Numbered from the stretch's first letter, positions 1-19,327 are shown. The stretch: 62,930 bases of DNA from a virus (IMGVR_UViG_3300009164_000073:1-62930); one strand, 5' to 3'. A program made the numbers and translations. The notes: a model not told the origin generated them from the letters alone.

Positions 1-2
1 CC

Positions 3-97
3 ATATAAAAACATACTGGATCTTCTAGTAGGTAAGAAGCTGATAAAAGAAATTGGCGAACGTGGTGTTCGAATCCCACTCTAGTGTGTTTCTATAT
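3..97 (+). ncRNA. tRNA-like element with extended (~18 bp) acceptor-like stem (element E1)
   Basis: ATATAAAAACATACTGGA (3-20) pairs with TCTAGTGTGTTTCTATAT (80-97). Inside are a D-like arm CTTC/GAAG, an arm CTGAT-AAAAGAA-ATTGG and a bulged T-arm GTGGTG-TTCGAAT-CCCAC. No CCA. Preceded by CCA (1-3) and abuts the next tRNA. Confidence 0.6.
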
Positions 98-173
98 GGT
101 AATATAGCATAGTGGCTAATGCAGTTGCTTCATACGCAGCCTATCGTTGGTTCGAGTCCAACTATTACCACCA
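98..173 (+). tRNA. tRNA-Met/Ile2 (CAT)
   Basis: Acceptor GGTAATA/TATTACC, anticodon loop TT-CAT-AC, T-loop TTCGAGT, encoded CCA. Met versus lysidine-Ile cannot be resolved by eye. Confidence 0.9.
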
Positions 174-174
174 A

Positions 175-370
175 GACGTTCCGAGTGTCGTCGGATACTG
201 TGACCCGCAGGATGAGAAGTAGTTTGACAACTACGGGTGGTTCTAGTCAAACCGAACTAGCGTTAGCGACACGAGAGTCTTCCCTGGTCGGGGAGCGGGT
301 GGAAGGTGAGGTCAGACTGGGGCAACCCGGGAAAGGATGCACTAAATTACCGCCGCAGGGAAGAAGCACC
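175..370 (+). ncRNA. GC-rich multi-pseudoknot structured RNA, unknown family
   Basis: Lies between two tRNAs. Hairpins TCCGA/TCGGA, GTAGTT/AACTAC and CTGGG-GCAA-CCCGG; long-range stem TCTTCCCTG(278-286)/CAGGGAAGA(356-364); several loop-complementary segments. Confidence 0.65.
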
Positions 371-377
371 TAATTCA

Positions 378-455
378 GGTCCCATAGTTCAGCCTGGCCT
401 AGAATAACTGCCTGTCACGCAGTAGACACGGGTTCGAATCCCGTTGGGACCGCCA
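378..455 (+). tRNA. tRNA-Asp (GTC)
   Basis: Cloverleaf GGTCCCA/TGGGACC, loop CT-GTC-AC, G discriminator, CCA. Confidence 0.95.
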
Positions 456-478
456 GACATTTTTATAAGTAATACACT

Positions 479-561
479 GCCCCGATGGTGGAATTGGTAG
501 ACACGGTGGTCTTAGAAGCCACTGCTTCGGCATCCGAGTTCGAGTCTCGGTTGGGGCACCA
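479..561 (+). tRNA. tRNA-Leu (TAG)
   Basis: GCCCCGA/TTGGGGC acceptor, loop CT-TAG-AA, variable arm, CCA. Confidence 0.95.
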
Positions 562-662
562 TATATAAATGTACTTAAATCCGTTAAAAGATCAGGTTTG
601 GTATCCCAGTCTCTGCGTTGGCATAGCCCGCATACTTAATACACCTTAGTATGTTTATATAT
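561..662 (+). ncRNA. Long-stem-closed structured element (E2), closing stem related to E1/E3
   Basis: ATATATAAATGTACT (561-575) pairs with AGTATGTTTATATAT (648-662) with 2 G-U pairs. Starts at the CCA of tRNA-Leu and ends 7 nt before tRNA-Val. Confidence 0.5.
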
Positions 663-669
663 GATTTAT

Positions 670-745
670 GGGTCGTTAGCTCAGTTGGTAGAGCGTCTGC
701 CTTACACGCAGAATGTCGGCAGTTCGAGACTGTCACGACCCACCA
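670..745 (+). tRNA. tRNA-Val (TAC)
   Basis: GGGTCGT/ACGACCC, loop CT-TAC-AC, CCA. Confidence 0.95.
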
Positions 746-761
746 TCCGAGGAGAAACTGT

Positions 762-902
762 ATGTCGAGTAAAGAAACGTTAGACAAGGCATACGGTAAT
801 ATGCCTAAAGAAGTAGGCTTCAATGTTGACTGGGGATTCATTCCAAGTTGGCGAGGTGTAAAGTACTATTGGTATACATTAGTACGCAAGGTTACAAGAT
901 AA
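762..902 (+). CDS. small hypothetical protein (46 aa)
   Basis: GAGGAG RBS then ATG at 762 (MSSKETLDK...). The track's upstream extension overlaps tRNA-Val. Confidence 0.6.
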   Translation: MSSKETLDKAYGNMPKEVGFNVDWGFIPSWRGVKYYWYTLVRKVTR

Positions 903-904
903 AT

Positions 905-994
905 GGAATGGTCCCATAATGGTATTGGAGCGGATTGCTAATCCGTCGATCGGCGAAAGTCGGTTTCTGGGTTCAAGTCCCAGTCATTCCGCCA
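905..994 (+). tRNA. tRNA-Ser (GCT)
   Basis: GGAATGG/TCATTCC, loop TT-GCT-AA, long variable arm, G discriminator, CCA. Confidence 0.95.
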
Positions 995-1006
995 GTTTTA
1001 GTTTTT

Positions 1007-1082
1007 GGGGGTTTAGCTCATCTGGGAGAGCGGCAGCTTTGCAAGCTGTAGGTGATCGGTTCGAGTCCGATAACCTCCACCA
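1007..1082 (+). tRNA. tRNA-Ala (TGC)
   Basis: G3:U70 pair, loop TT-TGC-AA, CCA. Confidence 0.95.
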
Positions 1083-1088
1083 AAATAT

Positions 1089-1164
1089 TCCCTAGTAGCT
1101 CAGAGGTAGAAGCACCTGACTGTTAATCAGGGTGTCGGTGGTTCGATCCCACCCTGGGGAGCCA
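1089..1164 (+). tRNA. tRNA-Asn (GTT)
   Basis: TCCCTAG/CTGGGGA, loop CT-GTT-AA, CCA. Confidence 0.95.
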
Positions 1165-1206
1165 GTTTTTTAAATTCTAGCCTATGCTAGACATATATAC
1201 TTTTAC

Positions 1207-1280
1207 GCCCTGCTAGTTAAATGGTATAACTCCTGTTTTGTAATCAGGCGTCGGCAGTTCGATTCTGTCGCGGGGCACCA
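1207..1280 (+). tRNA. tRNA-Thr (TGT)
   Basis: GCCCTGC/GCGGGGC, loop TT-TGT-AA, CCA; U-U mismatch at the base of the anticodon stem. Confidence 0.9.
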
Positions 1281-1295
1281 TTAATTAGGAGACAT

Positions 1296-1919
1296 ATGAA
1301 ATTTGCATTTTTAAATCCAACTGTAATAGCATTAGATGATGTTCCACAGGATGTATTCGATAAACTGTATGATATGGTGCACCTAGCACACACGCATTCA
1401 GATCACGATGATTCAGGGAACCCACAGCTAAGTGTTAGAGGCGGACAGCAAATTCAATTAGTCCCTAACGAGTTTGGTCTAGATACTGATGTACTAAAAG
1501 ACTATATTGAAAAAATAGCACAAGAGTACTTAGATTCCATTCAACAACAAAATCCGTTGGTTAATCTTGCGTCAGTGAAACCTTTGTTGATCTCTGCTTG
1601 GACTATTAAACAAGGTCCAGGGGATTATCAAGCACTTCACAGTCACGAGTCGAACCTAAGCGGAAATATCTATATCGATGTACCAGTGTTGGAAAACGCT
1701 AAACCATCAGATAGTCAAATTGAATTCAAGTTACCAATGACCAAAGACATCGCTCATTTTATCTTTTCAGATAGTTGGAGATTCCACCCAGAGAAAGGCA
1801 AGATGATCGTGTTTCCAGGTCACATACCACACACCGTCTATCCGTGGAACGGACAAGGGCATAGAATTGTTTTAGCCTGGGATGTCCAATTAGTGGATAG
1901 AGCGGTTGACATTAAGTAA
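1296..1919 (+). CDS. putative 2OG-Fe(II) oxygenase (TIGR02466-like)
   Basis: HSH...LSGNIY...FPGHIPHTV...R pattern; GGAG RBS. Confidence 0.75.
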   Translation: MKFAFLNPTVIALDDVPQDVFDKLYDMVHLAHTHSDHDDSGNPQLSVRGGQQIQLVPNEFGLDTDVLKDYIEKIAQEYLDSIQQQNPLVNLASVKPLLISAWTIKQGPGDYQALHSHESNLSGNIYIDVPVLENAKPSDSQIEFKLPMTKDIAHFIFSDSWRFHPEKGKMIVFPGHIPHTVYPWNGQGHRIVLAWDVQLVDRAVDIK

Positions 1920-1934
1920 GAAATAACGTATAAT
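1906..1934 (+). promoter_or_regulatory. consensus sigma70 promoter
   Basis: TTGACA-17 nt-TATAAT, perfect consensus. Confidence 0.9.
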
Positions 1935-1940
1935 AAGTTT

Positions 1941-2200
1941 TGTTGTGTAGCAATACACAACCGGTGAAGCGAAAGGTAGAAGAGGATAGACACATAGGAA
2001 TGAGCTTCACGCTTACTCCGAAACTTACAATCCAACTTGAAACTGGATCGTGTTTATGTGTTCCGATCCCTAATAAACTGTCATTTGTTAATCGGAAATA
2101 TATGGACCTCTGTGTATTGTATTTTGCACGTTGTCAACGAAGATTATAACCCTTCATTGTATATTGTCCGGTCTATTACTTGACCTTTCGTAGATCCGTC
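1941..2200 (+). ncRNA. large pseudoknotted RNA at the 5' end of the rpoZ/DIP1984-like transcript
   Basis: Begins at the predicted TSS with GTTGTGTA-GCAA-TACACAAC. Long-range pairs GTGAAGC/GCTTCAC, CGAAAGGT/ACCTTTCG, AGAGG/CCTCT, ATAGAC/GTCTAT, ACACATAG/TTATGTGT, TTCCGAT/ATCGGAA. Confidence 0.65.
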
Positions 2201-2222
2201 ATTTTTAACACAAAGGAGCCCT

Positions 2223-2447
2223 ATGGCTAGGTATTGTTCGGACGAAGCAGCGAAAATGGTTGGCGGAAGATTTAACTTAGTCTTGGTGGCATCACAGAGA
2301 TCAAGAGAACTTAAAAATGGTTCAATGCAGAGAGTAGAAGGCAAAGATGCCACTACCAATGTAACCGCCTTGAGAGAAATCGAAGAAGGCAAATATACAT
2401 TTCAAGAATATTTAGACAAATTGCACAAGAAGGAAAGACAACTATGA
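2223..2447 (+). CDS. rpoZ: RNA polymerase omega subunit homolog
   Basis: MAR N-terminus, GRFNLVLVASQRSREL and TALREIEEGK match omega motifs; AAGGAG RBS. Confidence 0.85.
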   Translation: MARYCSDEAAKMVGGRFNLVLVASQRSRELKNGSMQRVEGKDATTNVTALREIEEGKYTFQEYLDKLHKKERQL

Positions 2448-3019
2448 ACATCTCTTTAAGAAAAGCCAGTGCGTTACAGAACGCAATCAATGATGCTATC
2501 AAAGGCATCAAGTTCAATCTGTCTGTTGAACTCAATGAGTTCCAGGACGTGGCAGAAGAACTAAAGAAAGCCAATGACGAGCTAATGACAAACGACACAC
2601 GTCGTCAGAAACTGCTGTTGGCATTGTACAACATCCGTGGATTGGTCGGCGCTGCTAATGCCAGCGCAGGTATCGATCTCAAGTTGGCAACTGCCGCATT
2701 CGTTGACAAACGTATTGCACAGTTGGAAACTATCGCTCAAGCAGAGCCACATACCGATCTTAAAGTGATCGCTGGCAAGTTGGACAAGATCCGAAATGAC
2801 AAGAGCGACACTGCTCGTAGCCGTATCTACGGTTACAGCGATACAGTATCAACCACTGTGGTTAGCAAAGAGCAGATCAGTGAAGCTAAGGCTGAGATTC
2901 AAAATCTCAAGAAGCAGAAGCAGAAGCTCAATGACGAAGTTCTTGAGTTAAACATCAAGACAGAAGTTCCTCTGACTGACGATGTGGTGGCAACACTACA
3001 AGCAGAAGGACTACTGTAA
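2444..3019 (+). CDS. coiled-coil protein, DIP1984/DUF6847-like
   Basis: All-helical pattern; motifs IR..V..AN and C-terminal KQKLNDEVLELNIKTEV resemble the DIP1984 family as recalled (not searched). Confidence 0.55.
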   Translation: MNISLRKASALQNAINDAIKGIKFNLSVELNEFQDVAEELKKANDELMTNDTRRQKLLLALYNIRGLVGAANASAGIDLKLATAAFVDKRIAQLETIAQAEPHTDLKVIAGKLDKIRNDKSDTARSRIYGYSDTVSTTVVSKEQISEAKAEIQNLKKQKQKLNDEVLELNIKTEVPLTDDVVATLQAEGLL

Positions 3020-3021
3020 TA

Positions 3022-3227
3022 GACCCCGGTTTACTCTTTTACGTTATAATAAGAGCGTCCCTGAAACGATAGAACAGGGGGTACACTAGGACCTGACCTC
3101 ACAGTCCCTCTTTAAGGGATACTGGAAACTGCCTAGGGTTAGGTTTAACACCTTCTCCAGAAGAACAAATGTTATGGACAGAGTAACCGCTCAGTCTAGG
3201 GCCTATGTGGTGTAGGTAGCTAGACAC
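3022..3227 (+). ncRNA. multi-hairpin/pseudoknot structured RNA, unknown family
   Basis: No ORF. Hairpins CTCTT/AAGAG, CCTG/CAGG, CAGT.CCCT/AGGG.ACTG, TAACA/TGTTA, GTCTAG..CCTATG/TGTAGG..CTAGAC, with complementary loops. Confidence 0.6.
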
Positions 3228-3362
3228 TTTATAAAAGCTCTTTGAAGTTTAACTACACTGGAAAAAGCGAGTAACTGCTAAGTCGACTACACAGTGAAAG
3301 TCTCCAGGAAGATACGGAGTTAGACAGTTTGGTTCGATTCCAACAGAGAGCCTCTATAAAGT
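3226..3362 (+). ncRNA. tRNA-like element with long closing stem and bulged T-arm (E3)
   Basis: ACTTTATAAAAGCTCTTT pairs with AGAGAGCCTCTATAAAGT; T-arm GTTTGG-TTCGATT-CCAAC lies immediately 5' of the closing strand; ends 3 nt before a tRNA. Confidence 0.6.
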
Positions 3363-3365
3363 TAT

Positions 3366-3440
3366 AGCGGGTTGGAGAAGAGGAATCTCGGGAGTCTCAT
3401 AAGCTCCAGATCGGCGGTTCGAATCCGTCACCCGCAACCA
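3366..3440 (+). tRNA. tRNA-Met (CAT), initiator-like
   Basis: 1:72 mismatch (A/A), purine11:pyrimidine24, loop CT-CAT-AA, CCA. Confidence 0.9.
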
Positions 3441-3443
3441 TTT

Positions 3444-3520
3444 CGGAGTGTAGCGCAGCCTGGTAGCGCACCTGGTTTGGGACCAGGGGGTCCAAGGTTC
3501 GAATCCTTGTACTCCGACCA
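3444..3520 (+). tRNA. tRNA-Pro (TGG)
   Basis: CGGAGTG/TACTCCG, loop TT-TGG-GA, CCA. Confidence 0.95.
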
Positions 3521-3538
3521 ATTACTAAAAGGACATAA

Positions 3539-3724
3539 ATGATCAACGAAGAAGATACAAGCAGTGAAGATGCACTAGCAGAGTTCTTAGCTAAGGGTGG
3601 TGTAATACAACAGTTAAAACCAAACCAAAGTGGCAGAGTCGATGGTGCAAGCTATTCTTCTTGGTCAAAGAAAAAACCTTCTGTAAGTCCTTTAGCCAGT
3701 CCTCCAGAGGATCAAGACAGTTAA
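3539..3724 (+). CDS. small hypothetical protein
   Basis: AAGGA RBS; AEFLAKGGVIQ motif typical of a small phage/bacterial protein family. Confidence 0.65.
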   Translation: MINEEDTSSEDALAEFLAKGGVIQQLKPNQSGRVDGASYSSWSKKKPSVSPLASPPEDQDS

Positions 3725-3744
3725 TTATTAAATAGAAGCACGAT

Positions 3745-3820
3745 GCGGGAATAGCTCAGCTGGTAGAGCGATACCTTGCCAAGGTATAGGTCGGGAGTTC
3801 GAACCTCCTTTCCCGCTCCA
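3745..3820 (+). tRNA. tRNA-Gly (GCC)
   Basis: GCGGGAA/TTCCCGC, loop TT-GCC-AA, U discriminator, CCA. Confidence 0.95.
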
Positions 3821-3829
3821 AAGGATAAT

Positions 3830-4396
3830 ATGAAAGTAATAGATCAAAATGATGTGTTTCGCAAATATGATTTTAGCTCAGTGATAACTGAAGCTGACAA
3901 TCAACAGGCAATGGACATTGTTCGAGATATCATAGGCAATGGCAATTACTTTCACAACAGTCCAAAATATCAAACTAAAGAAAACATATTCGCTAGACCA
4001 GAACCCGTTTGGTTAAAGTATAGAATGAGCTTTTTAATGAGTGTGTTTATGTATCTAGGCCGTGAAGTTAAAGTACACGATATGATGGCTTGGTCGTTTA
4101 TGACTAACCTAGCCACAGCAGAAGATCGTGATAAACTTTGGCATCACCATCACAAAAACGGAACCCATATGTTAAGTGGAGTCTTTTATCTACACATTCC
4201 ACCAGACGTAAAAGATCGTGACTATGCTGGAACAGAGATGGCTCCATTCGGTCCTACTCACGAAGAAAAGTTTTTTGTTCGTCCTACCGACAATGCTTGG
4301 TTGATATATCCTTCAAAGGAATGGCATCGTCCAGGCATTGTGCAAAGTGATCAATATCGCTTTATTCTTGCCGCTGACATTGTGATCGAACTATGA
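3830..4396 (+). CDS. putative 2OG-Fe(II) oxygenase
   Basis: WHHH...LSGVFY...YPSKEWHRP...R; start reassigned to the ATG after tRNA-Gly (AAGGA RBS). Confidence 0.75.
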   Translation: MKVIDQNDVFRKYDFSSVITEADNQQAMDIVRDIIGNGNYFHNSPKYQTKENIFARPEPVWLKYRMSFLMSVFMYLGREVKVHDMMAWSFMTNLATAEDRDKLWHHHHKNGTHMLSGVFYLHIPPDVKDRDYAGTEMAPFGPTHEEKFFVRPTDNAWLIYPSKEWHRPGIVQSDQYRFILAADIVIEL

Positions 4397-5100
4397 ACAT
4401 AGCGTGGACACTATATACAGACCCTAAGTATGCTGATGTCAGTCAGTGGAAAGACCTTGTCTACTTTGAACCAGAAGCTCTTTGGCCCTTGGTCATTGAA
4501 GAACGTGGGAGTGCCGATTATACAAAATGTCCGGCTGTTTCGGACTTCTTTGACAATGTATTTGTTATACGTTGCCCTTATGATGTTATAATAAGTTATC
4601 AGCAAGAAGGAGATATGTTTACTACAGATCGACTAGGACAGGATTGGTACAATCAAACGTTCTATCCAAGATTTCCAGTTGTTGATAAAAATGGTAATCT
4701 AGTCAGTTCTTGCATAACACTTCGCATCAATTATCTATTTGTTGCGGATGAGGACGTTGAAATTGAAACCTTCGATGTGCCTTTGCTCTCTAACAATTTA
4801 ACTAGAAACATAAAGATGATTCCGGGCAAGATGAATATACATCGCTGGGTACGGCCTGTGGACTTTACATTCGAAGTAGTAGACTTGACTAAGCCTATCG
4901 AACTAAAGCGTGGTGATCCAATGTTTGCTATCCGCTTTAAAACCGACAGTAAAGTCAAGTTGACTCACATAGACTACAGCGAAGATTTAAAACACGCTGC
5001 TGAAGCTTGTCTAGCTTCTAAGACCTATGTTCCACGCAAAAGCCTCAAGTACAGATACGAGATGGCCAAACGTTTTTTGAAAAATAAAAAATGGTTATGA
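4393..5100 (+). CDS. conserved phage protein (DUF6065-like beta-fold)
   Basis: CPAV...IPG...W.RP...KRGDPM pattern; ATGA overlap with the upstream gene. Confidence 0.6.
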   Translation: MNIAWTLYTDPKYADVSQWKDLVYFEPEALWPLVIEERGSADYTKCPAVSDFFDNVFVIRCPYDVIISYQQEGDMFTTDRLGQDWYNQTFYPRFPVVDKNGNLVSSCITLRINYLFVADEDVEIETFDVPLLSNNLTRNIKMIPGKMNIHRWVRPVDFTFEVVDLTKPIELKRGDPMFAIRFKTDSKVKLTHIDYSEDLKHAAEACLASKTYVPRKSLKYRYEMAKRFLKNKKWL

Positions 5101-5651
5101 AATATCGTATGGATTGTCCGTTTGTAATTGGACAGTTTGAAAAACACAGCGACTTAAAAGAACAGGTACTTTCTGCTATCAATAAAGCGGAAGCTGATCA
5201 TTTAGTTGAGCCAGAAGATAATATGGACATATCTAGGTGTGACTGGAGATTAGGTCGTTGGGATCACACTAGACCGTGGTTTCAATCACTGCAACCTCAT
5301 TGGCACGATCATATGACTGCTGTTAGCAAAGAACTCGGCTACGAGTTTTTTAGACTTAAAGAAATTTGGTTTCAACAGTATAATACAAATGCGCATCACG
5401 GGTGGCACGTACACGGTAGTAATTGGACCAATGTTTATTTTTTAGAAATGCCCGAAGACAGTCCTAAAACTCAATTTATCAATCCATTTAATCAAACAGA
5501 GATAGGAACATTTGAAATCAAAGAAGGTGACATATTAACCTTTCCTAGTTTTGTAGTTCATAGAGCACCGATCAATTTAAGCAATAATAGAAAGACTATT
5601 ATTTCTTGGAATATGGATACTGAAATTGCTCCAGGACTATATCAAGAATAA
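5091..5651 (+). CDS. putative 2OG-Fe(II) oxygenase
   Basis: WFQQY...HGWHVH...FPSFVVHRA...RKTIISWN. Confidence 0.8.
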   Translation: MVMKYRMDCPFVIGQFEKHSDLKEQVLSAINKAEADHLVEPEDNMDISRCDWRLGRWDHTRPWFQSLQPHWHDHMTAVSKELGYEFFRLKEIWFQQYNTNAHHGWHVHGSNWTNVYFLEMPEDSPKTQFINPFNQTEIGTFEIKEGDILTFPSFVVHRAPINLSNNRKTIISWNMDTEIAPGLYQE

Positions 5652-5652
5652 C

Positions 5653-5726
5653 GCGGGGTTGGCATATTGGTTGTGTCCCAGCCTTCCAAGCTGGTTAAAC
5701 GAGTTCGATTCTCGTACCCCGCTCCA
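5653..5726 (+). tRNA. tRNA-Gly (TCC)
   Basis: GCGGGGT/ACCCCGC, loop CT-TCC-AA, CCA. Confidence 0.95.
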
Positions 5727-5732
5727 AATAAT

Positions 5733-5807
5733 CTGGCGTTCGTTCAACGGATAGGACACGATTCTTCTAAAGTCGTTATAGGGGTTCGATTCCCTTACGC
5801 CGGACCA
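5733..5807 (+). tRNA. tRNA-Arg (TCT)
   Basis: CTGGCGT/ACGCCGG, loop CT-TCT-AA, CCA. Confidence 0.95.
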
Positions 5808-5818
5808 GTGTTAAAAAT

Positions 5819-5903
5819 GCGACTGTGGTGAAATAGGTAGACACAAGAGACTTAAAATCTCTCGCTTTCGGGCGTGCCGGTTCGATTCCGGCCAGTCGCA
5901 CCA
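5819..5903 (+). tRNA. tRNA-Leu (TAA)
   Basis: GCGACTG/CAGTCGC, loop CT-TAA-AA, variable arm, CCA. Confidence 0.95.
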
Positions 5904-5907
5904 TTTT

Positions 5908-5940
5908 GAAAGCCCTGCTGGTTGACAGGGCTTTCGTTTG
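5908..5940 (+). terminator. intrinsic terminator ending the tRNA cluster
   Basis: GAAAGCCCTG-loop-CAGGGCTTTC followed by GTTT. Confidence 0.7.
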
Positions 5941-5950
5941 ATTGTATAAT
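5922..5950 (+). promoter_or_regulatory. sigma70 promoter overlapping the terminator
   Basis: TTGACA-17-TATAAT. Confidence 0.85.
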
Positions 5951-5982
5951 ATATGTTAAATAAATGTTCTTAAGGAGTTGGT

Positions 5983-6234
5983 ATGATTAAAGAGTACGAA
6001 AGCATTCAAGGTGATAATTTAGAAGAAGCTGATATGGCTCAACTGCTATCAGTGACTGCTAATGCAGATGCTGTAGCACGAGTTCGAGCTGCCATTCCAA
6101 CAGGACCTAGCCAAAGCCATTGTGACGAATGCGGAGAAGAAATCCCAATGGCACGTCAAAAAGCAGTGCGTGGCTGTAAGACCTGCATTGACTGCCAAAA
6201 TCTACTAGATAGGATTAAGAAAAATTATGGTTGA
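5983..6234 (+). CDS. TraR/DksA C4 zinc-finger protein
   Basis: CDECGEEIP..RQ.AV.GC.TCIDCQ; N-terminal EEADMA acidic tip; AAGGAG RBS. Confidence 0.85.
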   Translation: MIKEYESIQGDNLEEADMAQLLSVTANADAVARVRAAIPTGPSQSHCDECGEEIPMARQKAVRGCKTCIDCQNLLDRIKKNYG

Positions 6235-8040: not shown

Positions 8041-8066
8041 ATAGGGCCTTAGGGCCCTATTTTTTT
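8041..8066 (+). terminator. intrinsic terminator
   Basis: ATAGGGC-CTTAGG-GCCCTAT + T run; followed by a TAAATA late-type motif at 8075. Confidence 0.75.
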
Positions 8067-8112
8067 GGCTGGCATAAATATATTGAATACCTTACATCCA
8101 GGAGTTTTAGAT

Positions 8113-9741
8113 ATGCCATTACAGATTCGCAGAGGCCTTGACGCGGAAAGACTAGCCCTAACGCCAGCTACAGGCCTAGCACAAGGCGAACTAGTCTATG
8201 TTACAGACTCAAAACGTCTTTACATAGGAACCGGTTCAGCAGGCGAGCATCAAGGCGTTGCTATTACTGGTTATACCAACGAGGACGCACAGGATGCGGC
8301 CGCTGGACTTTTTACCGCTACTACAACTAGCGGTACTACAAATACTAACATTTCATTTGCCTACAACGATTCAGCAAATAAAGTAGTAGCCACAGTTGAC
8401 CTTACCGCATTAGGCACTAACATCGGTCTTAACGGTCATACAATTACAGGTAACGGTAGCATTACTATCAGCGGACTTGTTACAGCAGACCTAAAAGGTT
8501 CTGTTGCAGGTGACGACTCAGTGCTGCTAGTAAACGGTGCCGATTCAACGGTTAACCTAAGCGAAACTATTGTTGCAGATGTTAAACCAAGAATTAACTT
8601 TTCGCCAAATCTAGGAGCAACATCAAGAAGATTCAATGCTCTATTTGTTAGCGGAACAGGTGGTGTTGACGTAGGCGGTGCACTTATCACTGGTACTGGC
8701 GGCATACTTAATCTACCAGCTGGTTCATTAATTAATGGCCGTCCTATCACTCCAATAGACGGTGCGTTTACGGTACTAGATATCAAAGGCTCTGTGTTCG
8801 GTGATGATTCTACACTGCTAGTCGATTCTGTGGCAGGCACCATCAAAGGTGCTGTGGACAGTACTACAGTCAAAGCTAGTTCGTATGTGCAATCTCCATT
8901 AATAAATGCAGGTAGTCTTACACAGAATGGCGTGTTCAATGTTTATAATACTACAGACTTTTTTGGAACATTCTTTACCATAACAACATCTGGTCCCGGA
9001 GCTTTCCTAGATTTCCACGCTTCGAGAGGAACCCTTGCTTCACCTGCTGCATCACAAAATAATGATTACATCAGTGGTATTCTTTTAAAAGGACATAACG
9101 GAACTGCCTATGTACGTGCTGCGGCAGTTGTTGCTCTAGCAGACGGTAATGTCGTTAACGGTGAAGTTCCTGGAAAAGTTGTTATTTCTACTAAGAACTA
9201 TGCAGGTACTTTAGACAATTCATTCACGTTTAACAGTCGCGGAGTATTCGAAGCTCCGGTAATTAAACATACACCATTCGCAGATGCTACTGCACGTGAT
9301 GTGGGTATGAATGCTGGTGCTGGTATGATAGTATATAATACAGCACTTGGCCAATTCCAAGGTTACACATCAGGTTGGTACAGTGTATTAACTTCTGACA
9401 AGATTGGTTATACTACAGGTGTTGGTGGCGCAGTTACACAGATTAATACCAAAGCAACATCAGTTACACTAAACAAGATTTCTGGACAGATTACCTCTCA
9501 TACAGAATCCCTAGCAGGTAATGCCACTGTTATTTTTGATGTTCTAAATAGCACTGTATCACAAACAGATACTATCATTATTAATATGAAATCTTCAGGA
9601 TCAAATATTGGACAGTATCAATGCTGGATCGCTTCTATTGGTAATAACACATTTACGGTTGCTCTAAGAAATATGAGTGGAAGTCCGCTCGCAGAAGCAG
9701 TGACAATGAACTTTGCTGTAATTAAAGCTGTTGCAGCTTAA
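8113..9741 (+). CDS. tail fibre / virion structural protein
   Basis: MPLQIRRG...GELVYVTD..RLYIG N-terminus typical of phage fibres; Gly/Thr-rich beta repeats; GGAG RBS. Confidence 0.75.
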   Translation: MPLQIRRGLDAERLALTPATGLAQGELVYVTDSKRLYIGTGSAGEHQGVAITGYTNEDAQDAAAGLFTATTTSGTTNTNISFAYNDSANKVVATVDLTALGTNIGLNGHTITGNGSITISGLVTADLKGSVAGDDSVLLVNGADSTVNLSETIVADVKPRINFSPNLGATSRRFNALFVSGTGGVDVGGALITGTGGILNLPAGSLINGRPITPIDGAFTVLDIKGSVFGDDSTLLVDSVAGTIKGAVDSTTVKASSYVQSPLINAGSLTQNGVFNVYNTTDFFGTFFTITTSGPGAFLDFHASRGTLASPAASQNNDYISGILLKGHNGTAYVRAAAVVALADGNVVNGEVPGKVVISTKNYAGTLDNSFTFNSRGVFEAPVIKHTPFADATARDVGMNAGAGMIVYNTALGQFQGYTSGWYSVLTSDKIGYTTGVGGAVTQINTKATSVTLNKISGQITSHTESLAGNATVIFDVLNSTVSQTDTIIINMKSSGSNIGQYQCWIASIGNNTFTVALRNMSGSPLAEAVTMNFAVIKAVAA

Positions 9742-13313: not shown

Positions 13314-14162
13314 ATGGAACGATATAAGGTAGCCCCAACATACGAAGAACACTGGTTAGAGACAGATAGACCTCAACCACTATCCGACACAAGAATAGAA
13401 ACTGTTATACAAGGTATTCTAGATGGTCGGTTAGGTATGGATATTACTGATAAAGTTTATACTGATTTTAAAAAAGAAACCAGCGATTGGATTTTTAATA
13501 CTCAACTAAACAGCCTAACCGGGTTTGATTCATTTAATCGATTAGATATTACCCAAGGCTGTACACAGTTTATTGACACTATCTATATGAAAGGTCCCGT
13601 CCAGGTGTTACAGGGTGATTATAAGTATCATCATAGATTAGGCAACTGGGGACGAACCGTTGGCAATCTATCTGCTAATATTCCACTAATCATAGCAATG
13701 CCCTTTCCTAGCACAGGATCGGTACACACTCAAATGGAGGATATATTGAATGAATGTTTGGACAAAAAGATTGAAGTACATATCGACGGCGCTTGGATCA
13801 GTTGCTGTCGTGATATTGATTTTGATTTTAGTAATGATGCTATTAGATCCGTTGGCATCAGTCTTAGCAAAGGTCTTGGTCTCGGCTGGAACCGCGTAGG
13901 ACTTAGGTGGACAAAAGACGACAAGCCAGATGCAATTACTTTAATGAATGATTTTAGAATGAACCTTAGAGCAGTATCAATGATTGGCTTACATTTTATA
14001 AGAAATTTCCCCAGTGATTACCTATGGACAACCTACGGTGATATCTACCATAAAGTCTGCAAAGATTTTAATCTGACTCCTACCAAGAGTATACATCTTG
14101 CACTTAGAAACGGTCAAGCCGTTGGCATTAGCCCATTAATAAGATATGCCTCAAACAATTAA
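13314..14162 (+). CDS. PLP-dependent fold-type I enzyme (paralog of 10277..11176)
   Basis: VHIDGAW, SLSKGLG, RVGLR; shares QGCTQ.ID with its paralog. Confidence 0.7.
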   Translation: MERYKVAPTYEEHWLETDRPQPLSDTRIETVIQGILDGRLGMDITDKVYTDFKKETSDWIFNTQLNSLTGFDSFNRLDITQGCTQFIDTIYMKGPVQVLQGDYKYHHRLGNWGRTVGNLSANIPLIIAMPFPSTGSVHTQMEDILNECLDKKIEVHIDGAWISCCRDIDFDFSNDAIRSVGISLSKGLGLGWNRVGLRWTKDDKPDAITLMNDFRMNLRAVSMIGLHFIRNFPSDYLWTTYGDIYHKVCKDFNLTPTKSIHLALRNGQAVGISPLIRYASNN

Positions 14163-15414
14163 TCCACCAACATTTTGTATGCACCCATTTACTGGGCTTG
14201 CTACTAGAGAAGACGGCGCAATACAGGTATGTTGTCGTAGCCATCCTATTGGTAATATAAAAGATAACACCCTGGAAGAGATCTGGAACGGAGACAATAT
14301 GAAACGTATCCGTAAGCAAGTGCTCACAGGGTATCGACCAAAGGAGTGTGAGCCCTGTTTTAGTTTAGAAGACCAAGGTGTTGAAAGTTTACGGCAACGA
14401 CACGTACTTGGAAAAATCCCAGAGGCACGGATTAATTTATATCCCAATGCCGTTAGTACAATGCGTAAAGATCATACAATGCCGTTTGAGATTCCTACTA
14501 TGGAACTTAAACTTAATAACTTATGTAATTTAAAATGTCGTATGTGTCATCCGGGGGATAGTACCGCTTGGAATGATTGGGCAGAAGTTAAAGAGTTTTA
14601 CAAAGGTGAAGGGCAGGTTATATTCGATATCGTTGAAGAACACAATTTAGAAAAGAAACCGTTACTAGATAAGTTTGAAGATAATCCCAATTGGTGGATT
14701 AGTTTAGAAAAGAACTTACCCTACTTCCGACGTGTGGAATTCGCAGGAGGCGAGCCTCTAATGGATCCGCAACACTTTCGAATATTAGATATGCTTGCTC
14801 CGTATGGTGATCAAATTGAAATCAAATATGCCACTAACTTAACCACGCTAGGTAAGAGCAATCGCACAGTTTGGCAATACTGGCCTAAATTTAAATCAGT
14901 AGCGGTAAATGTAAGTATTGACGGTATTGGCACTAGCTATGAATACATTCGCGGCAATGCCAGCTGGGCTGAACTTATAAACAACATTAAACAAATACAA
15001 ACTATTCCAAATATTAGTCGCATTGTGGGAGCAGTGGCTGTGCAGGTCAGTAACATTCTCATACTTGACAAAATGATAGAATATTTTTTAAACGATTTAG
15101 GTATTGTATTTTATACTAATATGGTACAATATCCCAACGTATTATCTGCACAAGTTATTCCTAACGAATTAAAATCAATAGCTATTATTCGTTTAAAAGA
15201 TGTTAGGGAATTAGTTCCGACTTTTAAATTAGTAAAAGAACATCCGATGTTAGAAGAGCTAACTTACAAACAAATCGACGGCATAATTAATTTCATCCTA
15301 GCAAAGGATAATACCCACTTGTGGAATGATTGCATAGAGTATAACCGTCGATTAGATGTCACAAGAGAACAGAGTTTCTTTGATGTAACTCCAGAGTTTA
15401 AACCCTATGTTTAA
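14146..15414 (+). CDS. radical SAM protein with N-terminal twitch/SPASM-like domain
   Basis: CNLKCRMC, AGGEP, SIDG; N-terminal FC.HP...CC...C..C. Confidence 0.9.
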   Translation: MPQTINPPTFCMHPFTGLATREDGAIQVCCRSHPIGNIKDNTLEEIWNGDNMKRIRKQVLTGYRPKECEPCFSLEDQGVESLRQRHVLGKIPEARINLYPNAVSTMRKDHTMPFEIPTMELKLNNLCNLKCRMCHPGDSTAWNDWAEVKEFYKGEGQVIFDIVEEHNLEKKPLLDKFEDNPNWWISLEKNLPYFRRVEFAGGEPLMDPQHFRILDMLAPYGDQIEIKYATNLTTLGKSNRTVWQYWPKFKSVAVNVSIDGIGTSYEYIRGNASWAELINNIKQIQTIPNISRIVGAVAVQVSNILILDKMIEYFLNDLGIVFYTNMVQYPNVLSAQVIPNELKSIAIIRLKDVRELVPTFKLVKEHPMLEELTYKQIDGIINFILAKDNTHLWNDCIEYNRRLDVTREQSFFDVTPEFKPYV

Positions 15415-16303: not shown

Positions 16304-17402
16304 AACTACCGCAATTAGACTGCTAAATCCTACAGCAATGTCGGTTACCTGGGATACTGGTCGCAGATGCAACTACGATTGTACATATTGTGAATCAACA
16401 AGACACGACTTAAAAAGTTCATATCACAGTTTTGAAGAACTTAAAAATACATATCATTTTATCAAAGAGTGGACCACAGAATACAATAGCAGACGAAAAG
16501 AAAACAAAGGAGTTAACATTGTGTTCACTGGCGGTGAACCAACAATTAATCCTAATTTCTGGAACCTTGTAGAATATATTAAAAACGATAGCGACAATTT
16601 TAATTTACAATTAACTACTAACGGTACTTGGGGCCCTAGTTATAGAGAAAAAATATTAAAATATCTCGACTGTGTTACTATCAGTTGGCACGCCGAAGGA
16701 CCGGCTAATCTCAAGCAACGAGCCATAGATAACATATTACATCTAAGCAACAGTGAAATCGTATTGCAGGTTAATCTTATGCTACACGCTGATCACTGGG
16801 ATGAAGCTATGGACGTCTGCAAGTTGCTAGATGACAATAATGTAAAGTATAATCCTAGACCAATTGGAGATGGAAACATAACTCGAGTTGGGTGGTTTAT
16901 CGATGCCGATGGCACTAATCGCAGAACATCTCATACCTATAGTAAAGAACAGCAAGAATGGTTTTTTAAAAAAATGGGAAGTAGTTTGCCTGGGTCTGAA
17001 AAAGCAGAAGGTAACCAATTAGGACGTGGGTGTTGTGGAGGTCGCTGCCTCGAAGCAAAAGTAGACGACCAGTGGCAAACTGTTAAGTTAGTTAATACTG
17101 AATTTAAAGGTTGGCAATGTATGGTTGATTGGTTTTTCCTACACATCGATCAACATACAGGACTAGTCTATCATCATCAAACCTGTCAGGCATTGCATAA
17201 TCAAAAAAGAGGAGCACTAGGACATCTAGACGATAAAGGACAAATGCTAACTGATCTTAAATTAAGATTAGAAAATCCTAGTCCTATTATTTGTCCCAAT
17301 CAAAGATGCGGGTGTGGAATGTGTGTTCCTAAGGCACGGGATCCTGTAGATTTTAAAATTATGTGGCAGGCGCTAACAGATGTGCCAGCTCAGGAAATGT
17401 AG
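16296..17402 (+). CDS. radical SAM protein, Cys-rich C-terminus
   Basis: CNYDCTYC, TGGEP; GCCGGRC and CPNQRCGCGMC. Confidence 0.9.
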   Translation: MIKTTAIRLLNPTAMSVTWDTGRRCNYDCTYCESTRHDLKSSYHSFEELKNTYHFIKEWTTEYNSRRKENKGVNIVFTGGEPTINPNFWNLVEYIKNDSDNFNLQLTTNGTWGPSYREKILKYLDCVTISWHAEGPANLKQRAIDNILHLSNSEIVLQVNLMLHADHWDEAMDVCKLLDDNNVKYNPRPIGDGNITRVGWFIDADGTNRRTSHTYSKEQQEWFFKKMGSSLPGSEKAEGNQLGRGCCGGRCLEAKVDDQWQTVKLVNTEFKGWQCMVDWFFLHIDQHTGLVYHHQTCQALHNQKRGALGHLDDKGQMLTDLKLRLENPSPIICPNQRCGCGMCVPKARDPVDFKIMWQALTDVPAQEM

Positions 17403-18789
17403 ATTTAAAATCTGTGCCGCGCTGATTATCCATTACTGTAATATATTCTCTAAAATCGGGTAACAAATGAGTATGGTCTTGAGCATCCATCCAATCTAGT
17501 ATACCTTCCCAGCGTTTCCAACCATAGGGATTTTTTTCCCAAAAATCTGCATCTTGAGTATAGTTATCCCATAACCAGTCTTGCAATTCAGCAAACAGTT
17601 TACGAACTTCGAATTTATCTTCCTTAGGCAGCACACGTAAACTTAACCACGTAGGAATCCACAATAAATGAACACTGGCTAATCCGCCACCGGTAACCTG
17701 TCCTGCAACATTTAATTCAAAATTTAATTTTTTAAATCCGCTTCGGACTTTCCATTTAAGCAATTCGGGTATATGTTTTATATTCAGTATTTGCGCTGCC
17801 AATTCAATAGTGGTAGTAATATTATCAGGAGTGTTCTCTAATCTATGCAAATTTTTCTCTACAACATTAAAATCCATCGGATAGCGAATGTAATTTACAC
17901 GATCCCCAATTCCATCAAGACTTACTGCAAATTTAACTTTTCTAAAATGCTTCCATATATTAATGATAGTTTCATCTATTAAGATTCCATTAGAATTATA
18001 TCTAAGAAGTATTTTATCAGCATAGCCCCTACGAATTATTTCTTCAAGAAATATTTTGTGTTCTTTAATTAAAAGAGGCTCACCGCCAGCAAAGTATATT
18101 TGCTTTAAGTTTGGAATCTGGTTGTATATATCGTTCCAAAAAGATGGATGTTCGTACCAATAGTTGTTGAACTCTTTTTGTTCCCAGAACATTTGATTTT
18201 TTATCTGAGAACTTTGAAAAATAGGAAATACTTTTTTGTGCTCTGGAACCCACATTGAACTATCGTGCGGACTACACATAATACATTTTAGATTGCAGGT
18301 ATGACCTAATCGTAAATCTAGATACTCTAACTTATAAGGAACAGTGCCGTCTTCTTCAGTATTATTAACTAGTTCGGGAATATTAGCATTTTCAGTTTTA
18401 AACCACGTAACTGTTTCCCAAATCCTCTTACTAGCGATCTCAGACTCTTCTTCATCGAAACATTTCTTACAACTTGCAGGAATTTTTCCCTCGAGCATAG
18501 TTGTTCTAACAGACTTCATATAGTTATTATTAAATGCACCCGCCGGCGTATCTTTGCCGAAGTTAGTTGGAGTACCATCTTCTTTTTTTACAAGGCCTAC
18601 TCCGTAGTCACCGGTATCTGCTCCACTGGCGTTTGCTACACAGCACAGTCGAGCATCGCCGTTTGGCCTTGTTGCTAGGTGATTCCACGGCAGCACACAA
18701 AAAGATTTTGACCCAGACAGGTCTTCAATAACTTTTTGCCATTTACCTATTTCGGTTGTTTCAGGTTGAATCCAGTATACATCTTTCAT
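17359..18789 (-). CDS. radical SAM protein with N-terminal twitch-like domain
   Basis: CNLKCIMC, AGGEP, SLDG; start set at MKDVYW. Confidence 0.9.
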   Translation of the reverse strand: MKDVYWIQPETTEIGKWQKVIEDLSGSKSFCVLPWNHLATRPNGDARLCCVANASGADTGDYGVGLVKKEDGTPTNFGKDTPAGAFNNNYMKSVRTTMLEGKIPASCKKCFDEEESEIASKRIWETVTWFKTENANIPELVNNTEEDGTVPYKLEYLDLRLGHTCNLKCIMCSPHDSSMWVPEHKKVFPIFQSSQIKNQMFWEQKEFNNYWYEHPSFWNDIYNQIPNLKQIYFAGGEPLLIKEHKIFLEEIIRRGYADKILLRYNSNGILIDETIINIWKHFRKVKFAVSLDGIGDRVNYIRYPMDFNVVEKNLHRLENTPDNITTTIELAAQILNIKHIPELLKWKVRSGFKKLNFELNVAGQVTGGGLASVHLLWIPTWLSLRVLPKEDKFEVRKLFAELQDWLWDNYTQDADFWEKNPYGWKRWEGILDWMDAQDHTHLLPDFREYITVMDNQRGTDFKSTFPELAHLLAPAT

Positions 18790-18829
18790 AATAGTAATTA
18801 TGTCTATATAACTGCCGCTAAATATTTCT

Positions 18830-19327
18830 ATGTTATACAAAGGTAATTTTTCAAATATTTTTGAGCCCGAGGCATTGCAATTTATTCTTGCAAATCAAGG
18901 GGACCTTCGCCCGCAGACTAATATCGATAGTTACCAATTGGATAATTTCGGGAAGTGGAAATCTGCTGGGTATGATATGAACAAAATACGTTGGGAAGTA
19001 TTTTCCGGAGATACACCTAAATTTAATTTTAAAATATCTCTGCCATTCAAAGGAACGATCAAATGGTGGTTTGCAAAACTACATCCAGGCGATATGTTTC
19101 CGTTACATTTAGATACGTTTCCGGATAATACAAATGTAAGACGATATTGGATAGCCTGTCAAGATTATATACCTGGACATATTTTTGCCTACGATGATAA
19201 AATTTTAACAGGATATAAAGCTGGTGATATTTTTATGTTCGATCACAGCACTGTGTTACACGGATCTGCTAATATAGGATTTACTCCTAAGATATCTTTA
19301 CAGGTTGCTGTTACAGATGATCAGTAA
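18830..19327 (+). CDS. 2OG-Fe(II)/AspH-like oxygenase
   Basis: PG.MFPLHLD...HGSANIG..PK. Confidence 0.7.
   Translation: MLYKGNFSNIFEPEALQFILANQGDLRPQTNIDSYQLDNFGKWKSAGYDMNKIRWEVFSGDTPKFNFKISLPFKGTIKWWFAKLHPGDMFPLHLDTFPDNTNVRRYWIACQDYIPGHIFAYDDKILTGYKAGDIFMFDHSTVLHGSANIGFTPKISLQVAVTDDQ

Follow-up and report, generated by a model that had tools for sequence, protein, structure and literature searches.

What are the stretches of DNA that separate some of the tRNA genes of a giant phage, each closed upon itself by a long helix, and do they belong to one kind of RNA? We consider this question for IMGVR_UViG_3300009164_000073, a whole virus contig of 62,930 nucleotides (nt) in IMG/VR, analysed here over its full length (the window). 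The estimated completeness of the contig is 17%, and its relatives reach 353-364 kb, so the window is a fragment of a jumbo phage genome. ARAGORN finds 14 tRNA genes in its first 6 kb, every one on the plus strand, and an Rfam scan of the entire window at the gathering threshold returns those 14 tRNAs and no other family. Between these tRNA genes lie three elements, E1 (1-99), E2 (560-663) and E3 (3226-3362), which a first-pass annotation had interpreted as a family of long-stem tRNA mimics. We find that E1-E3 are members of a real, conserved and uncatalogued family of RNA elements that populates the tRNA arrays of freshwater jumbo phages, that the interiors of these elements are interchangeable cargo, and that likeness to tRNA is confined to a minority of the members.

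Each element is closed by a long terminal helix

The ends of E1, E2 and E3 are inverted repeats (arms in Table 1) that are 85%, 88% and 84% complementary and rank 1st, 6th and 3rd, respectively, among the 32 inverted pairs in positions 1-6200. Whole-molecule folding z-scores for the three are weak (-2.71, -2.42 and -1.83), and for that reason z-scores of minimum free energy were replaced by a test directed at the terminal helix, in which the best helix whose anchor lies no more than 12 nt from either end is scored by its number of paired positions. The count is 19 for E1, 18 for E2 and 17 for E3, compared with means of 7.1-7.6 and maxima of 14-16 in dinucleotide shuffles of each element, and in all three cases the observed value was reached in 0 of 1000 shuffles. 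The long closing stems that the first-pass annotation had described in these spacers therefore stand, as does its statement that their ends are flush with the neighbouring tRNAs: E1 and E2 start within a CCA, and the gaps to the next tRNA are 0, 6 and 3 nt. The A.C mismatch it had noted at the same position in E1 and E3 is likewise present. Read from the sequence, A8.C92 in E1 and A3234.C3354 in E3 directly follow an outer stem of eight positions, and the two fall in the same alignment column as a non-pair that recurs across the family, where E2 has U-A.

The helix covaries in related phages

Relatives were recruited through a neighbouring open reading frame (ORF) of 191 amino acids, and the best 80 of 94 were used as related loci (designated below by L numbers). 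A seed-and-extend helix scan of their 723,944 bases, which favoured G.U pairs, yielded 462 helices; 145 of these abut the end of a tRNA and reduce to 92 distinct elements, 82 of them without an internal tRNA. The class to which E1 and E2 belong, class A, spans 60-125 nt, another class measures 167-170 nt, and further length classes lie at about 113, 145-150, 206-233 and 238-240 nt.

Covariation was assessed in 46 aligned class A elements, whose columns 4-11 and 13-24 pair with columns 171-182 and 184-191. Pairing is found in 94.9% of the cells, a value that 0 of 500 shuffles attain, as against 80.2% when shuffled and 30-54% in slid controls. Changes on both sides occur in 15 of the 20 pairs and in 132 cells, compared with 39.4 in shuffles, and the covariation score is 0.446 (0.172 in shuffles). 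The first-pass annotation had grouped E1-E3 as one family, and this grouping is upheld, with closing stems that covary across related phages; the absence of covariation by which the annotation would have been refuted is not what the alignment shows. The plan of class A is an outer helix of eight positions, a non-pair and an inner helix, and E1 and E3 fit it with A.C. The non-pair, at column 12/183, is conserved in 30 of the 46 elements (A.C in 24, C.A in three, U.U in two and C.U in one) and is replaced by a pair in the other 16, E2 among them. Eight pairs inward, at column 20/175, 27 of the 46 elements have U.G. The closing helices comprise 17-22 pairs, a length that would fit an RNase III stem of about two turns.

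A covariance model of class A built here, R1, has E1 and E2 in its training alignment and scores both higher on the plus strand (46.8 bits versus 33.8 for E1, and 37.5 versus 27.1 for E2). Within the window these two are its only matches at E<0.01, and E3 is unmatched.

The elements keep to tRNA arrays, in one orientation and one register

IMG/VR was also scanned with a pattern for the two-arm core, which occurs in at least 119 stretches; 80 loci with 84 places were examined, and at least 64 of those places lie in tRNA-bearing loci. Among the matches listed, all 45 that fit on a single strand do so on the tRNA strand and none on the other. In the same set, a tRNA lies within 30 nt upstream at 44 places, with exactly 4 nt between its end and the core at 42 of them, and this tRNA is Lys(UUU) in 27 of the 44. 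The helix begins 2-5 nt inside the preceding tRNA in 34 of the 45 elements that follow one, and where the next 14 nt downstream are free of any tRNA, as in 12 elements, the complement of NCCA nevertheless forms the end of the 3' arm. Nearly all of the 20 places in loci devoid of tRNAs are one 71-nt perfect palindrome that seems unrelated to the family. This palindrome (L220, L223, L229 and 16 other loci) fits on both strands, and many of the record names look isolate-derived.

The same confinement is seen with R1, which in two near-complete relatives of 353 kb and 364 kb has matches only within the tRNA array. In 80 unrelated-looking loci (689 kb) strong R1 matches occur in four only, each of which is a tRNA array of 15-28 genes in another gene order, and all 11 elements there are flush with tRNAs. 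Of 11 elements outside the R1 training set, ten score higher on the tRNA strand. A 15-mer arm motif, searched over IMG/VR, gave mostly chance matches and was set aside, four of the 80 loci listed being true family members.

Particular positions in the array are occupied again and again, by different elements. For example, consider the spacer from Lys(ttt) to Met(cat): 16 of its 17 distinct versions in relatives contain an element closed by a long stem, while one is empty and measures 5 nt. The interiors, of 27-59 nt, are unrelated, yet the arms are of the E1 type in most of these elements (in 12 of the 14 listed). The slot of E3, which follows a conserved RNA and precedes the second tRNA-Met, is empty in four distinct sequences and filled in 15, by elements of six length classes (80, 88, 120, 138, 148-152 and 171 nt), of which the 138-nt class is E3's own (L002-L004). 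The region upstream of this slot, 3020-3225, is a second conserved intergenic RNA-like region found in many relatives; it ends exactly where E3 starts, RNA-library contigs lie over 3054-3200 and 3070-3190, and Rfam has no match to it.

The 167-170 nt class (for example L047 796-964 and L028 5781-5949) has compensatory changes in 33 of its 50 pairs, so that this sister class, at about 169 nt, is a genuine structured RNA. It contains an internal T-loop-like hairpin, is found in two slots and matches no Rfam family.

The interiors are exchangeable and rarely resemble tRNA

The interior of E1 holds a cloverleaf that is complete, though degenerate. It is called a pseudo-tRNA-Leu(aag), with a score of 87.1, when the ARAGORN threshold is lowered to 85%, as compared with 108.5-123.5 for the real tRNAs and 82.6 for the next-best sub-threshold call in 6.2 kb; its anticodon loop, read from the sequence, has no U33. 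At default settings ARAGORN finds no tRNA in E1, E2 or E3, and none of the three gives a row with the Rfam tRNA model (RF00005) at E<=10. When parent tRNAs were sought for E1 and E3 the scores stayed within background, and none of the clade's 574 distinct tRNAs is a close parent of E1. In E3 the top half of a tRNA, a T arm plus an acceptor-like stem of seven pairs, is joined to about 85 nt of other sequence, and relative to an 85%-identical copy in L004 one of the T-stem pairs of E3 changes from G-C to C-G and one acceptor pair from U.G to C-G. A T arm with a UUCRANY loop beside the 3' strand, which the first-pass annotation had pointed out in E1 and E3, is indeed present in both, with one bulged T in E1, and is absent from E2, whose interior holds unrelated hairpins and has no tRNA feature at all.

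What E1 and E3 share in this respect is uncommon in the family as a whole, and the tRNA-like body that had been proposed as its hallmark is not one. Only eight of 83 elements contain a T-arm-like hairpin (in 300 shuffles the mean is 1.6 and the maximum 6), and in four of these, E1 and E3 included, the hairpin lies directly against the 3' arm. At an 80% threshold ARAGORN makes a low-score call in four of the 83, one of them without an assignable anticodon, and two elements of relatives are pseudo-tRNAs at lowered thresholds (98.1 and 99.9). A different motif recurs in the small interiors, the C-AUA-G cap also seen in the E2 hairpin, whose 5-mer is found in 17 of 52 where 2.75 are expected.

Cargos form 14 clusters with more than one member, six of which sit in differing slots; there the outer stems follow the slot and pairing is kept. 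The remaining 36 of the 83 cargos are singletons. Blastn searches of the 80 related loci recover E3 in L002-L004, part of it in L041, and nowhere else, and neither E1 nor E2 has a match, the near-identical L002 and L003 ending short of both; the interiors of E1 and E2 are thus without a known homologue. Rfam offers no match to E1-E3 at E<=10, nor, at E<=1, to the stem-closed elements of L006. Among protein families, the CCA-adding enzyme (PF01743) is encoded in 0 of 5 records of relatives. The literature searched, supplements excepted, holds no description of such elements, and the supplementary motif lists of PMC5737381 could contain a related motif.

Neighbours in the array and RNA-library contigs

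GOLLD and ROOL, according to PMC5737381 and bioRxiv 10.1101/2024.12.08.627333, are large phage RNAs that often lie beside tRNA islands. GOLLD, with an embedded tRNA, is present at 201-221 bits in the tRNA arrays of five of the 12 related loci scanned, and in all five a class A element follows it after 2-6 nt. In L007 a 169-nt stem-closed RNA also stands behind tRNA-Leu(tag), about 430 nt upstream of GOLLD, and in L034 and L062 a shorter class A element lies upstream of it. GOLLD (RF02032) was not found in the window, nor in the examined stretches of four more distant arrays that bear the family. The family elements, at 60-170 nt, have no similarity to GOLLD and also occur in arrays whose examined stretch has none.

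Four freshwater or lake RNA libraries contain contigs over 26-340 with zero differences. A 134-nt contig with nine differences covers 3230-3363, coinciding with E3, a 79-nt contig covers 3362-3440, and other contigs leave out 566-669 and 3213-3361, the pattern to be expected of relatives that lack E2 or E3. Contig cover is missing at 763-889, 2287-2413 and 3557-3683, which is uninformative, contig depths being unable to rank expression.

Several further features of the array and its surroundings deserve mention in their own right. The spacer between tRNA-Met and tRNA-Asp, 174-377, is about 81% conserved in eight relatives, with a 63-nt part at 79% in a ninth (L070); an RNA-library contig lies over 176-303, and the folding energy is ordinary (z +0.52). 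A perfect sigma-70 consensus promoter (12/12) at 1906-1934 precedes a conserved RNA of about 280 nt (region 1906-2222), which is aligned at DNA identities of 90% or less in nearly all 80 related loci. RNAalifold gives this RNA 54 pairs, 21 with compensatory changes, and Rfam has no match to it; RNA-library contigs of about 195-200 nt cover 1994-2190, their depth being no measure of expression. It adjoins a downstream 74-amino-acid ORF (2223-2447) that matches Rpb6/omega (PF01192, E 5.7e-10), an RNA polymerase omega-like subunit in a phage tRNA region. Three paralogous putative 2-oxoglutarate-Fe(II) oxygenases (PF13759) are encoded among the tRNA genes, at 1296-1919, 3830-4396 and 5091-5651, and could serve to modify RNA or tRNA. 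The array's last tRNA is directly followed by a terminator-like hairpin (5907-5936), which shares sequence with a second perfect sigma-70 consensus promoter (5922-5950). Beyond the array, 8065-9741, 14146-15414 and 17359-18840 encode one protein with an Mtd_N domain and two radical S-adenosylmethionine proteins, one with a SPASM domain; Mtd_N is the N-terminus of the major tropism determinant, a type of diversity-generating retroelement target.

Table 1. Positions of the elements' parts and adjoining tRNA genes in the window, and of GOLLD in related loci
Feature	Position	Strand	Called by	Remarks
E1 5' arm	1-20	+		the CCA at 1-3 belongs to an upstream tRNA lost at the contig end; A8 is the conserved non-pair
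E1 cargo, degenerate cloverleaf	13-88	+	by eye	D arm 23-38; anticodon arm 40-56 (loop 45-51); T arm 62-79, bulged T
E1 3' arm	80-99	+		98-99 are G1 and G2 of tRNA-Met; 0-nt gap to that tRNA
tRNA-Met(cat)	98-173	+	ARAGORN	immediately 3' of E1
tRNA-Leu(tag)	479-561	+	ARAGORN	tail runs into the E2 helix
E2 5' arm	560-575	+		begins within the CA of the tRNA-Leu(tag) CCA
E2 interior hairpin	615-631	+		C-AUA-G cap (620-628), recurring in family interiors
E2 3' arm	648-663	+		stops 6 nt short of tRNA-Val(tac)
tRNA-Val(tac)	670-745	+	ARAGORN	downstream of E2
E3 5' arm	3226-3244	+		outer eight positions 3226-3233; non-pairs A3234.C3354 and A3236.C3352; acceptor-like 3237-3243
E3 T-arm-like hairpin	3328-3344	+		four of five stem pairs; abuts the 3' arm
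E3 3' arm	3344-3362	+		stops 3 nt short of the second tRNA-Met(cat)
second tRNA-Met(cat)	3366-3440	+	ARAGORN	downstream of E3
GOLLD, L006	982-1447
GOLLD, L007	3188-3649
GOLLD, L034	2990-3452
GOLLD, L062	3747-4211
GOLLD, L070	418-880

Discussion

Overall, we lean, by no wide measure, towards the view that E1-E3 are RNA cassettes co-transcribed with the tRNAs around them and that the stem acts in the definition or processing of ends, a function that is unproven. In each, an outer helix of about eight pairs is followed by one conserved non-pair, in most cases A.C, and then by the 9-12 pairs of an inner helix that surrounds the variable cargo. In elements that follow a tRNA, the outer helix takes in the discriminator and CCA of that tRNA and four more nt, and the 3' arm leaves 0-7 nt to the tRNA that comes next. 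This architecture, its conservation, register, orientation and context are observed, whereas its action on the transcript is inferred. The duplex would hold the 3' tail of the upstream tRNA together with the leader of the downstream one; a duplex-directed endonuclease and RNase P might then free both tRNAs, and the cargo would be set free as an RNA that its closing hairpin shields from exonucleases. The fixed orientation, the CCA register, the confinement to tRNA arrays and outer stems that are specific to their slot and still pair all count for an element that acts as RNA, as do the compensatory changes in the 169-nt sister class. Moreover, an outer stem that follows the slot while the same cargo appears in several slots points to selection on the length of the helix and not to a fixed terminal repeat.

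At the same time, several observations weigh against this view. The aligned elements were picked for having a helix, and covariation alone cannot separate an RNA stem from terminal inverted repeats that co-evolve. RNA-library contigs cannot show ends and may include DNA, so that they give a weak hint only. An unbiased count over 80 tRNA-flush helices (G.U 81 versus A.C 66, p=0.25) shows no strand asymmetry of the RNA type; dropping the two conserved columns gives 17:2, a ratio biased by the elements having come from the scan that favoured G.U. In these arrays most tRNAs follow one another at a distance of just 1-12 nt, and some slots contain no element, so tRNA processing does not require the elements. 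RNase III (PF14622) is encoded in none of five records of relatives, a search that covers the phage side only, and the interior helices predicted for the E3 of the window are not retained in L004.

The same symmetric counts of G.U and A.C are what one would expect if the elements were selfish or recombinogenic DNA hairpin cassettes, similar to miniature inverted-repeat transposable elements (MITEs) or intervening sequences, that insert or are exchanged at tRNA borders, use the stem as a terminal inverted repeat or recombination site and are tolerated since processing removes them. Clean presence and absence at one site agrees with this (the E3 slot, empty in four cases against 15 occupied, and the one empty Lys-Met slot), as do the contigs of relatives that skip the E2 and E3 regions, the sharing of one cargo among slots and the many singleton cargos. 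We nevertheless regard it as unlikely, given an orientation of 45:0, the restriction to tRNA arrays, the fixed CCA register and an outer stem that varies by slot yet always pairs. Copies dispersed in both orientations with target-site duplications, as expected of a MITE, were not found, the duplications being judged by eye between empty and occupied sites. A selfish origin of the cassettes may nonetheless apply and could coexist with a role at the RNA level.

Other readings place the meaning of the elements in the tRNA. One, which we think rather improbable, takes the helix as a docking and processing module by which cargos are plugged in immediately after particular tRNAs, above all tRNA-Lys(UUU), with the CCA sequestered until a nuclease positioned by the A.C cuts exactly after A76. 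The proposal of the first-pass annotation, a dedicated ribonucleoprotein family of tRNA mimics in which a protein-binding stem carries a tRNA-like body, akin to Ro60-bound YrlA or acting as decoys for anticodon nucleases or tRNA-sensing defences, seems to us doubtful to a slightly greater degree. The stem sequence, the non-pair and the U.G wobble eight pairs inward are all conserved, as a protein site would be; a T arm is stacked on the stem in E1 and E3; and the commonest upstream partner, tRNA-Lys(UUU), is a known target of anticodon nucleases. The rarity of the T arm, its absence from E2, the lack of U33 in E1 and the failure of E1 to pass the ARAGORN threshold tell against it. The partner genes that the annotation had suggested seeking, for Ro60 (TROVE) or RtcB, are absent from all five records, two of them 98-100% complete, with the TROVE controls detected, and a host-encoded Ro60 is possible. 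Thus, the mimic interpretation is supported in part, holding for a minority of the members at most. That the elements are simply decaying tRNA genes whose leaders and trailers pair by chance, with no family and no selected stem, is the explanation we find very hard to credit: it has in its favour the lowered-threshold ARAGORN calls on E1 and on two elements of relatives, and must contend with so few calls among the 83 elements, with a stem that is conserved and covaries around unrelated interiors, and with a cloverleaf in E1 that has no close parent.

Known RNAs resemble the cassettes in some respects. In phage T4, species 1 RNA (rnaC, 139 nt) and species 2 RNA (rnaD) lie in a tRNA cluster 1-6 nt from their neighbours, like E1-E3, and are co-transcribed with tRNAs, as stated in PMC2330249; in PMC3014915 the roles of RNAC and RNAD are given as still unknown. 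The likeness to T4 that the first-pass annotation had drawn is one of architecture. The fold of rnaC, a terminal stem, a T arm abutting the 3' strand and two interior hairpins, is that of E3, and E1 shares the plan of terminal stem and T arm, whereas E2 does not. Unlike E3, however, rnaC has a short folded terminal stem (3 + 5 pairs) without the eight-pair outer helix, and rnaD has no such fold (z -0.83). The likeness does not extend to sequence: in the T4 region R1 has 0 matches, and blastn finds only T-loop 11-mers and no homology to rnaC.

YrlA RNAs combine an end-to-end stem with a tRNA-like module that has a T arm. E1 and E3 have both, while most family members lack the module, and kinship to YrlA is not borne out by its Rfam model (RF02553), which matches none of E1-E3 and gives a sole row of 17.7 bits (cutoff 69) at 3411-3469, inside tRNA-Met/Pro. 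The intervening sequences of 23S rRNA are excised by RNase III, and spacer-derived RNAs are known from tRNA operons. These are likewise sporadic stem-closed inserts with variable interiors in stable-RNA transcripts, removed by processing as the phage elements would be; the phage elements differ from the rRNA inserts in lying between tRNAs, in the fixed CCA register and in the conserved non-pair. In mascRNA of MALAT1, according to PMC8457004, pairing of leader and trailer lengthens a tRNA-like acceptor stem. The acceptor-like stems of E1 and E3 are lengthened in the same manner, but mascRNA is eukaryotic and unrelated in sequence and context.

Small stable RNAs of puzzling role, such as RNAC and RNAD, have been known from phage tRNA clusters for fifty years, and the family described here adds many natural variants to them. 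With at least 64 places, a sharply defined helix, a fixed CCA register and exchangeable cargos, the question of what such RNAs do becomes a testable one. If the helix is indeed a docking module, an improbable reading as stated above, it would allow timed or conditional release of tRNAs, and the cargo RNAs may be decoys against defences that target tRNA. The elements also set small RNAs beside the large GOLLD RNAs that these phages carry, and they point to an unexplored step in the maturation or control of tRNAs in giant phages.

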